From IMG/VR virus record IMGVR_UViG_2671180755_000006: 6,045 bases of DNA; one strand, written 5' to 3'. The DNA is from a virus (taxonomy: Duplodnaviria; Heunggongvirae; Uroviricota; Caudoviricetes). Below the pieces are notes generated by a model that saw only the letters and a list, made by a program, of their open reading frames with translations, was not told the origin of the DNA and searched no databases. The translations under genes were made by a program, and so were the position numbers. Shown here piece by piece: positions 4,961-5,737 of the stretch; position 1 is the stretch's first letter; each line of letters opens with the position of its first letter.

Positions 4961-5646
4961 ATAACCACTATTTACAGTTTGTGCGTGAGCAGCTCATTAT
5001 CGCCACCGCTGATTTGAGTGGGGCAACAAAAGGTCAGCTTGAAGCCTGGCAGGAGAATGCCATGTTCGATACAGGGCGTTACAGGCGAAAAAAAATCCGG
5101 TACCGCGATGAAGTGACTGGAAAAATGATAACGCGGGATAATCCACCAATCCCGGGAAAGCAATCGCTGGCGAAGGTGACGTCAATTCCTCTGGTCAGTC
5201 CGGTTGAGTTTTCGACATCATCGTGGCGGCGGGCTGTTCTGTCTCTTGAAGAACATCATAAAGCCTGGTTGTTGTGGTGTTACAGCGGGAGTATTTGTTG
5301 GGAATATCAGATCGCGATAACACAGTGGGCGTGGAATGAATTTAATACTCAATCCGGTACCAGAAAAATTGCAGGGAAAACGCAGGAACGCCTGAAAAAA
5401 TTAATCTGGCTGGCGGCGCAGGCAGTAAAAGCAGAACTTTTTGGTGGGGAAGGTTATGAATACAAGGAGCTGGCATTACTGGTGGGAGTGACAACTAAAA
5501 ACTGGTCCAAAACATTTACTCGTCACTGGGTTGCAATGAAACACATTTTTCACCGACTGGATAGTGAGGCTTTATTGTTTGTAATGAGAACGCGTTCAAA
5601 ACAAAAGGCGGCATTTTCAAAGCAAAGTGTTGCAAAAGTAGATTGA
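4957..5646 (+). CDS. putative Q-like late antiterminator, 229 aa; family uncertain
   Basis: ATG 4957 preceded by GGAG (4948-4951) at 5-nt spacing (the track starts at GTG 4951); TGA at 5644-5646. Assigned mainly by position: after rusA, and overlapping a promoter-like element followed by a short leader and terminator. I do not recognise a Q motif; only 2 Cys. Confidence 0.5.
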   Translation: MNNHYLQFVREQLIIATADLSGATKGQLEAWQENAMFDTGRYRRKKIRYRDEVTGKMITRDNPPIPGKQSLAKVTSIPLVSPVEFSTSSWRRAVLSLEEHHKAWLLWCYSGSICWEYQIAITQWAWNEFNTQSGTRKIAGKTQERLKKLIWLAAQAVKAELFGGEGYEYKELALLVGVTTKNWSKTFTRHWVAMKHIFHRLDSEALLFVMRTRSKQKAAFSKQSVAKVD

Positions 5647-5658
5647 AAGGCATATATT
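5630..5658 (+). promoter_or_regulatory. putative late promoter (PR'-like): TTGCAA, 17-nt spacer, TATATT, overlapping the Q-like stop codon
   Basis: Hexamers seen directly. The predicted start (~5665) would give a ~70-nt leader ending at the 5711-5737 terminator. Confidence 0.4.
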
Positions 5659-5710
5659 TCATGCAAATCTGATATTTTGCCGATTTTGTACGTGATGGCA
5701 AAAGCAAACA

Positions 5711-5737
5711 AAACCCGCCCACAAGCGGGTTTTTTTG
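5711..5737 (+). terminator. strong intrinsic terminator (tR'-like)
   Basis: AAAACCCGC-CCACAA-GCGGGTTTTTTTG: GC stem followed by a run of seven T, upstream A-tract complementary to the T-tract. Confidence 0.85.

Follow-up and report, generated by a model that had tools for sequence, protein, structure and literature searches.

A probable phage-82-type late-gene regulatory cassette in a lambdoid prophage of Escherichia coli O157:H7 and its apparent link to the IsrJ RNA

Introduction

The DNA considered in this article is a stretch of 6,045 nucleotides (nt), IMG/VR virus record IMGVR_UViG_2671180755_000006, which will be called the window, and the element in question lies at positions 5630 to 5737 of it, where the end of a Q antiterminator gene runs into a promoter, a short leader, and a terminator. 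With a probability of about 0.87, we read this region as a cassette that regulates the late genes of a phage-82-type lambdoid prophage in Escherichia coli O157:H7, in which the Q gene, the late promoter pR′, a Q-binding and pause site (qut), and an equivalent of the terminator tR′ follow one another on the plus strand. As such, the element is an unannotated member of a well-understood kind, and mechanistically it holds nothing beyond phage 82. The one modestly new point regards the small RNA (sRNA) IsrJ of Salmonella, which appears to be the terminated pR′ leader RNA of cassettes of this type, a link that is not stated in the papers examined.

The Q82-type gene and its probable late promoter

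The Q gene occupies 4957-5646 on the plus strand when the RefSeq start, ATG 4957, is used, and a mechanical open reading frame (ORF) call begins at GTG 4951, the products having 229 and 231 residues, respectively. The protein matches PF06323 over its whole length (E = 7e-92, profile positions 2-217 of 220), RefSeq names it "bacteriophage antitermination protein Q", and tblastn reports 76% identity to the Q protein of phage 82 (X92588) and 73% to a phage 434 protein labelled "Q82-like". Q proteins fall into three unrelated families, of which PF06323 is the one named Q82 (Yin et al., PMC9388147). A search of the solved structures in the PDB returned no relative of Q, the sole match being a spurious one, of 22.7 bits, to a phage lysin.

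The first-pass annotation of this DNA had proposed that a promoter of the form TTGCAA-17-TATATT overlaps the stop codon of a Q-like gene and starts transcription near 5665. The overlap is there: the promoter scan and the relatives both place the -35 hexamer TTGCAA at 5630-5635, within the last Q codons, and the -10 hexamer TATATT at 5653-5658, and the stop codon TGA (5644-5646) falls within the 17-nt spacer between them (AAAGTAGATTGAAAGGC, 5636-5652). This spacer is conserved in relatives and is the candidate Q-binding element (QBE). As for the start, our own prediction arrives at the same place, namely the AAA of 5665-5667 with +1 at 5665, which is 7 nt past the -10 hexamer and agrees with the published numbering of 82 pR′.

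Downstream of the predicted start stands a putative sigma70-dependent pause element (5670-5681), which is composed of an extended -10 TG at 5670-5671, a -10-like TATTTT at 5673-5678, and the discriminator GCC at 5679-5681, and which is recognized from the relatives and from the work on phage 82 (PMC5001585). According to Bird, Strobel and Roberts, the pause element of 82 pR′ is -10-like, nearer to TATAAT than that of lambda, and comes with an extended -10; a discriminator, GCC, follows at +15 to +17, and then an AT-rich stretch; sigma70 is engaged at +21, and the pauses occur at +25/+26, with U at +25 (PMC5001585). Counting from 5665, the window has TG at +6/+7, TATTTT at +9 to +14, GCC at +15 to +17, GAUUUUG at +18 to +24, U at +25, and A at +26, the last two being the predicted pause (5689-5690), and the pause motif TGATATTTT spans +6 to +14. 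Every published pause feature of 82 pR′ has, in other words, its counterpart in the window, where pausing itself is predicted.

The QBE of lambdoid pR′ promoters sits between the -35 and -10 elements, and the segment from -31 to +30 of 82PR′ suffices for a functional QBE together with the pause element (Wells et al., PMC4914094). This segment corresponds to about 5634-5694 in the window, and by analogy Q would bind its DNA site in the spacer, at about 5636-5652. Record X92588 of phage 82 extends no further than the Q stop codon (its end reads ...TTGCAAAACTGGATTAA), literature searches for the 82 pR′ sequence found nothing, and the comparison with phage 82 beyond that codon is by description only. 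Up to it, the last bases of the record (...ATATTGCAAAACTGGATTAA) show TTGCAA in the 3′ end of Q, their stop codon occupies the spacer position that it has in the window, and the spacers differ at 3 of their first 11 positions (AAAGTAGATTG here versus AAACTGGATTA in 82). TTGCAA is found at the equivalent place in phage 434 and Gifsy-1 as well.

Several points weigh against reading the region in this way. The hexamers reach 9 of 12 consensus matches in the promoter scan, and such a match is not significant alone, the window holding 15 sites of this kind versus 6.6 +/- 2.8 in shuffled sequences; for this reason, the case for function must come from context and comparison. The composite of the promoter and TGnTATnnT occurs once in the window versus 0.01 expected, a test that is circular because the pattern was derived from the same sequence. 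The likeness to the pause element of 82 rests on its published description, not on an alignment, and the -35 hexamer and the first 11 bases of the spacer overlap the coding sequence of Q, which could explain part of their conservation. On this last point, the Gifsy-1 copy is instructive: it follows anrP, not Q, and yet it keeps TTGCAAAACTGGATTAAAACGGCTATATT, with the spacer retained, and a copy outside the Q gene argues against coding constraint as the cause of the conservation of the -35 and the spacer. The Hfq-CRAC (cross-linking and analysis of cDNA) sRNA tables of Tree 2014 are without an entry at the locus in prophage Sp12 of strain Sakai, and this absence is uninformative, because peaks less than 100 nt from a gene were excluded, as PMC7547250 explains in the case of StxS. 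Lastly, Q would perhaps never be made if the prophage is cryptic, as it may be.

Conservation among Q82-type cassettes

Loci of the Q82 type were drawn from one-genome-per-species contigs, viral contigs, and phage records, and they yielded 19 non-redundant cassettes from seven genera, i.e., Escherichia, Salmonella, Citrobacter, Klebsiella, Raoultella, Enterobacter, and Cronobacter. Their Q proteins go down to 51% identity to that of the window, and all 19 align from -45 to +14 without a single gap. The Q stop codon lies at spacer positions 9-11 in every cassette, and the anatomy described above, from the Q family to the terminator, recurs element by element across the genera. The -35 hexamer is TTGCAA in 17 cassettes, the other two having TTGCAG and TTGAAA, and the spacer follows the pattern AA..g.AtT.AA. 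The -10 hexamer reads (T/C)ATATT in 14 of the 19 (TATACT, TATATC, TATGTT, TACATT, and CAGAAT in the rest), the start region contains AAAT in 13, and the pause motif is present as TGATAT at +6 to +11 in 17/19 and as TGnTATnnT in 18/19.

Beyond about +15 the sequences of the 19 cassettes diverge freely. A clear intrinsic terminator begins between +27 and +71 in 17 of them, the remaining two having degenerate versions, and the stems comprise at least seven unrelated sequences, with predicted leaders of 53-98 nt. A position that is kept with a sequence that is not is the pattern expected of a functional terminator. The layout of a late promoter and qut after a Q-like gene, which was the central proposal of the first-pass annotation, finds its support in this homology, as far as sequences can tell: a Q protein of PF06323, an overlap of the -35 with Q like that of 82, the pause layout, and elements shared by 17 to 19 of the 19 relatives.

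The same comparison helps to judge a plainer explanation, according to which the hairpin only ends the Q (delayed-early) transcript, the hexamers are a chance match, and there is neither a late promoter nor a qut. Genes commonly end in this way, with a terminator ~65 nt past the stop codon, the window has 15 promoter-like matches that are equally good (9/12), and the hairpin is terminator-like on both strands. Chance would, however, have to account for hexamers, a 17-nt spacing, a start region, and a TGATAT that stay ungapped across 19 cassettes of seven genera whose terminators differ in sequence. It would also have to account for the Gifsy-1 block, which a 0.9-kb insertion has moved away from Q and which still yields a mapped IsrJ RNA (PMC2330248), and it leaves Q, a gene that needs its cognate qut and terminator downstream, without them. 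We regard this explanation as very improbable and retain the late-gene cassette.

At closer range, some 80 near relatives show hardly any variation from Q to the end of the terminator, and divergence and module swaps start right after 5737; the variable sites per position amount to about 0.1 in the leader versus about 0.67 in the spacer that follows it. This marks a mosaic boundary after 5737 and suggests that Q, qut, and the terminator pass on together as a single unit, and a block so nearly invariant fits a Q gene having to travel with its own qut and terminator.

The terminator and the predicted leader RNA

The intrinsic terminator, equivalent to tR′, lies at 5710-5736 on the plus strand and was identified by scan, by folding, and from the relatives. 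Its core consists of CCCGC (5714-5718) and GCGGG (5725-5729), separated by the loop 5719-5724 and followed by seven T (5730-5736), so that the plus strand reads AAAACCCGC-CCACAA-GCGGGUUUU, then more U. Folded alone, 5708-5738 reaches -13.0 kcal/mol (z = -4.1), and 0 of 200 shuffles were as good. The stem sets in ~52 nt past the -10 hexamer, which bears out the strong terminator that had been noticed after about 50 nt, and a start at 5665 predicts a terminated RNA of about 66-72 nt (5665-5736), in line with the ~70-nt leader proposed at the same time.

The terminator scanner listed the minus strand only, because its greedy stem swallowed the T-run of the plus strand. An A-tract ahead of the stem makes the element terminator-like on both strands. 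On the minus strand, 5700-5740 folds at -17.6 kcal/mol (z = -3.0) with the tail GUUUGCUUUU, and no convergent gene is annotated downstream.

Taken whole, the leader 5665-5738 (74 nt) folds at -24.1 kcal/mol (z = -4.0), and it combines a 7-U tail with a single-stranded A-rich stretch, AAAAGCAAACAAAA. A further hairpin is predicted by folding at 5675-5703 (hairpin 1; UUUUGCC.GAU...AUGGCAAAA). It is a weak feature of -7.9 kcal/mol (z = -2.3) that forms part of the minimum free energy structure of the whole leader. A hairpin at this place is predicted in most of the long leaders, in registers that differ between subgroups, and the short leaders, those of 434 and phiES15, are without it; RNAalifold on 15 leaders gave no consensus structure, and we make no claim of covariation for hairpin 1.

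A hairpin followed by a terminator also recalls the leader-peptide attenuators of the Phe, Trp, and Leu type, and the window does give sub-threshold matches to Phe_leader (25.4 bits versus a threshold of 55), Trp_leader (22 versus 41), and Leu_leader (21 versus 50). All these scores are far under the gathering values, and they are driven by the generic shape of a hairpin plus a terminator. The region has no leader peptide ORF with regulatory codons, its only ORF being one of 40 amino acids that starts at TTG 5677 and runs through the terminator, and amino-acid biosynthesis genes are absent downstream. The context effectively refutes an attenuator.

Returning to the late-gene cassette, we infer promoter activity, pausing, Q binding, and Q-dependent readthrough from phage 82, and the steps would be as follows. 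RNA polymerase with sigma70 would start near 5665 at the constitutive promoter TTGCAA-17-TATATT, and the retained sigma70 would bind again at the extended -10-like element of +6 to +14, after which the complex would scrunch and pause at about +25 (5689). Without Q, it would escape the pause and terminate at the hairpin and U-tract of 5710-5736, releasing the leader of ~70 nt; lysogens of phage 82 are reported to make a short pR′ RNA (PMC7547250, citing Schechtman 1980). On induction, Q made from the gene just upstream would bind its site in the spacer and load onto the paused complex, which would become resistant to the terminator, and readthrough would then cover the tRNAs, the TerB-like gene, the esterase, and the lysis genes. 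The lysis genes are located on the same strand, downstream of the terminator.

The apparent link to IsrJ

The window matches the Rfam family isrJ (RF01393) with 24.5 bits (E = 0.0055-0.029), which is below the gathering score of 37. The match is full-length and takes in the 5′ end UGCAAAUCUGAUAU, the A-rich linker, and the terminator, and in addition blastn aligns 5630-5675 with the isrJ promoter of Gifsy-1 at 82.6% identity. The order of elements in Gifsy-1 is AntQ (Q82-type; PF06323, E = 5.8e-119), isrK, anrP, a Q82-type promoter, and, directly after this promoter, isrJ, which scores 100.3 bits (positions 2501-2607 of the Gifsy-1 locus, L005). Members of isrJ above the threshold, with 38-73 bits, occur in the Enterobacter phages ENT1 and CobraSix, in Citrobacter youngae, in Raoultella scottii, and in a Klebsiella species, and these matches lie 16-20 nt past the Q82-type stop codon (L102 1209-1282, L014 1906-1984, L013 1906-1976, L106 1206-1279, and L012 1909-1981).

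Because isrJ members occupy the late-leader position after Q82-type genes in these other genera, IsrJ appears to be the terminated pR′ leader RNA of Q82-type cassettes. IsrJ is an RNA of 74 nt that has been detected experimentally and is needed for the efficient translocation of effectors of Salmonella pathogenicity island 1 (SPI-1) (PMC2330248), and its detection implies that the homologous promoter and terminator of Gifsy-1 work in vivo. Regarding earlier work, Hershko-Shalev 2016 makes no mention of a late promoter or of qut, and the example linked to antitermination that is cited in Sy 2020 is IsrK, not IsrJ.

The leader predicted in the window has several properties in common with IsrJ: the promoter TTGCAA-17-TATATT (with about 83% identity across 5630-5675), the initial 15 nt or so (AAAUCUGAUAU), the A-rich linker, the terminal terminator, a length similar to the 74 nt of IsrJ, and a position relative to the Q82-type gene that is the same as in Enterobacter, Citrobacter, Raoultella, and Klebsiella. 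Where it departs from IsrJ is in the middle part of the RNA (+12 to +40) and in the terminator stem, and it fails the isrJ threshold because of these two parts; the O157 leader is accordingly a diverged relative of IsrJ, not a member of the family.

A second difference concerns Gifsy-1 itself, where an insertion resembling immI, isrK-orf45-anrP, separates Q from the promoter and has pushed the late promoter and IsrJ away from Q. This block looks like an immI-type insertion of the P1/P7 kind (c4-icd-ant) placed between a Q82-type gene and its late promoter, and isrK belongs to it. In the Gifsy-1 locus, Rfam finds "a1,b1 targets of C4" at 1684-1736 and "C4 antisense RNA" at 1799-1882 (together L005 1684-1882), and AnrP has an ORF6N domain. 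IsrK was also considered as a relative of the leader and set aside, its full-length match of 22.7 bits (gathering score 50) being probably generic; in Gifsy-1, isrK has a promoter of another kind (TTGACA-17-TATATT), and isrK itself overlaps the Rfam matches to C4 RNA of the P1 type and its a1/b1 targets.

Given a relative of this kind, the short RNA may be more than a by-product of the late promoter, namely a trans-acting, Hfq-binding sRNA of the IsrJ lineage that would regulate host or virulence genes in lysogens, a reading that extends the late-gene cassette. It draws on the isrJ match, sub-threshold and yet covering the 5′ end, the linker, and the terminator, on the true isrJ members at the same position in other genera, and on the effect of IsrJ on the translocation of SPI-1 effectors (PMC2330248). 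StxS offers the precedent that pR′ leaders can be regulatory sRNAs (PMC7547250), and the 7-U tail with the single-stranded A-rich stretch, the 2-3 identical copies per genome (among the O157:H7-type records listed), and the low variation of the leader, about 0.1 versus about 0.67 variable sites per position, can be added in its favor. This low variation may, however, be no more than a sign that the relatives share a recent ancestor and inherit the leader together with Q, the role of the 5′ end as a pause element at the DNA level accounts for its conservation, and conservation between subgroups does not extend to the middle of the RNA; a literature search for the leader RNA sequence found no match. 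On balance, a trans-acting function is possible and, in our judgement, doubtful. Equally tentative is the wider proposal that, with IsrJ as a Q82-type pR′ leader, O157:H7 would have two to three identical diverged copies acting as an Hfq-dependent trans-regulator in lysogens, possibly of virulence or secretion genes, like IsrJ in Salmonella, with the DNA doubling as the loading site of Q.

Locus and origin

Many E. coli O157:H7 chromosomes match the segment 5560-5860 with 100% identity, and the segment is found in 2-3 copies per genome, identical to each other, among the O157:H7-type records listed. At some level it is matched by 1174 of 5426 complete E. coli genomes, i.e., about a fifth. In strain Sakai, one copy is located in prophage Sp12, between ECs_2267 (Q) and ileZ6, where the leader corresponds to 2240992-2241063 of NC_002695.2 on the minus strand, with further copies in Sp9 and Sp10, and in the genome records the late-promoter element carries no annotation. 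The gene order in MB41-1 runs from replication protein P through DUF1627, hokD, DUF968, and RusA to Q, and then from tRNA-Ile/Arg/Arg through TerB-like, DUF3927, SASA esterase, an element of the IS3 family of insertion sequences (IS), and holin to lysozyme and Rz; it is the order of the early-to-late junction of a lambdoid prophage.

With such a setting comes the question of whether the cassette is a relic that looks intact, in a cryptic prophage whose Q is never expressed and which would make only the constitutive short RNA, or nothing. O157 strains have many defective lambdoid prophages, and at this locus the IS element sits between the esterase and the holin. A clearly decaying copy of the cassette is known from E. 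coli ECMA0423 and Shigella flexneri (L006/L007, about 1879-1990), with one T missing between the -10 and the start and a G-to-T change in the stem, which reads CCCTCC instead of CCCGCC. Against these observations, the Q protein of the window is full length with a complete Pfam match, and the cis elements are intact and identical, both in the 2-3 copies per genome among the O157:H7-type records listed and in many strains. Furthermore, near-identical cassettes are present in induced phages (ompW site) and in isolated phages. A relic is therefore unlikely in our estimate, and a cassette of a phage-82-type prophage remains the preferred reading.

Two runs of N interrupt the window, at 3238-3346 (109 bases, near a hok/sok-type region) and at 4837-4870 (34 bases, inside the RusA gene), and both appear to be masking rather than real sequence. 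On the minus strand, at 5622-5635, the reverse complement TTGCAACACTTTGC fits the CII-box pattern TTGY-N6-TTGY, and the equivalent site in the phage 434 record is annotated as a CII binding site and as the -35 of paQ (L004 2166-2179); the site of the window has no convincing -10, and its second repeat is not kept in all relatives.

The tRNA module and the site after the terminator

The tRNA genes of the window are found at 5857-5932 and 5940-6016, a third one starting near 6030. Ahead of them, the scans reveal a second promoter-like element on the plus strand, TTGCAA-17-TATTAT (5819-5847), which is followed by a GC-rich discriminator, CCTGCGCC, and lies 9 nt ahead of tRNA-Ile2 (CAU) at 5857. 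Discriminators rich in GC are typical of stable-RNA promoters. The element is conserved in the unrelated Stx2a phage WGPS6: 5818-5850 is identical there, one mismatch each at 5851 and 5855 precedes the tRNA, the two sequences have diverged upstream of about 5800, and the promoter scan finds the element in WGPS6, too. Because 5819-5847 is identical although the flanks diverge, the ileZ-argN-argO module probably has its own promoter, and its tRNAs would be boosted, not solely gated, by Q. The first-pass annotation had the leader terminator gate everything downstream, including the tRNAs; the general gating stands as a prediction, and its tRNA part has become doubtful. A literature search for a promoter of ileZ-argN-argO found nothing relevant.

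In ENT1, a phage of Enterobacter, the leader terminator is followed by the start of the first tRNA after 10 nt, and gating of the tRNAs by this terminator is plausible in that phage. Genes or arrays of tRNA stand after the leader terminator in many Q82-type phages (L102 1292-1523, L104 1395-1687, L008 2067-2373, L105 1605-1682, and L005 2842-2920), and tRNA modules have been inserted at this spot repeatedly. Other sRNA families with Salmonella names occur in the region as well, since STnc100 (in a Klebsiella phage) and isrI (in Citrobacter) exceed their Rfam gathering scores downstream of Q82-type cassettes (L103 1452-1638, L016 2979-3075, and L014 2414-2510); the accessory ("moron") site of the late region is rich in sRNA genes.

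Comparison with known systems

Phage 82, whose system is biochemically characterized, resembles the window in the family of its Q protein and the 76% identity of the latter, in the -35 TTGCAA that overlaps the 3′ end of Q with the stop codon in the spacer, in the described layout of the pause (extended -10-like element, GCC at +15 to +17, pause U at +25), and in the short terminated transcript. Besides the spacer substitutions given above, the difference is that the cassette is followed here by a tRNA module and by accessory ("moron") genes.

The pR′-qut-tR′ region of lambda, with its 6S RNA, is alike in having a QBE in the spacer, a promoter-proximal pause dependent on sigma70, an intrinsic terminator, and a short constitutive RNA. 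However, lambda Q belongs to an unrelated family, PF03589, the pauses of lambda are at +16/+17, its -10-like element occupies about +1 to +6, and the RNA released at its terminator has 194 nt, whereas the pause element of the window is 9 nt further downstream and the leader has about 70 nt.

StxS is the pR′-tR′ transcript of the Stx1 and Stx2a phages, binds Hfq, and regulates rpoS and stx1B (PMC7547250). Compared by description, not by sequence, it shares with the leader of the window a constitutive late promoter that is terminated just downstream in lysogens to give a short RNA, and a cassette located upstream of tRNAs of the ileZ-argN-argO type and accessory genes. The primary transcript of StxS has 258 nt and is processed by RNase E to 74 nt (PMC7547250), whereas here the primary leader would have about 70 nt. 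In WGPS6, the sole Stx2 phage examined, Q belongs to PF06530, and similarity to the window starts only at about 5784.

HnrS (EcOnc10/11/12), a multicopy prophage sRNA of enterohaemorrhagic E. coli, was considered for its three identical copies in Sakai Sp9/Sp10/Sp12 and ruled out, for its 15-nt complement to the 3′ end of mazF was not found in the window or in the surrounding 14 kb, and EcOnc10 (Sakai 2234239-2234287) is some 7 kb distant from the element, with Rz on one side and the terminase genes on the other. The AgvB/AsxR anti-sRNAs and PasA/PasC are, by their published descriptions, further downstream, past the accessory genes or beside the holin. RNA duplex predictions against hha and mazF gave energies within the range of shuffled sequences.

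Implications

For the biology of O157:H7, the element would be the on-switch for the late genes in a class of its prophages, and knowing the positions of its start, pause, and terminator would allow clean deletion or reprogramming of late-gene expression. If IsrJ-type sRNAs are late leaders of Q82-type cassettes, as they appear to be, a virulence-associated sRNA of Salmonella would acquire a simple evolutionary origin. By the same token, the leader becomes a multicopy candidate sRNA in enterohaemorrhagic E. coli, where it may have a trans-acting role.

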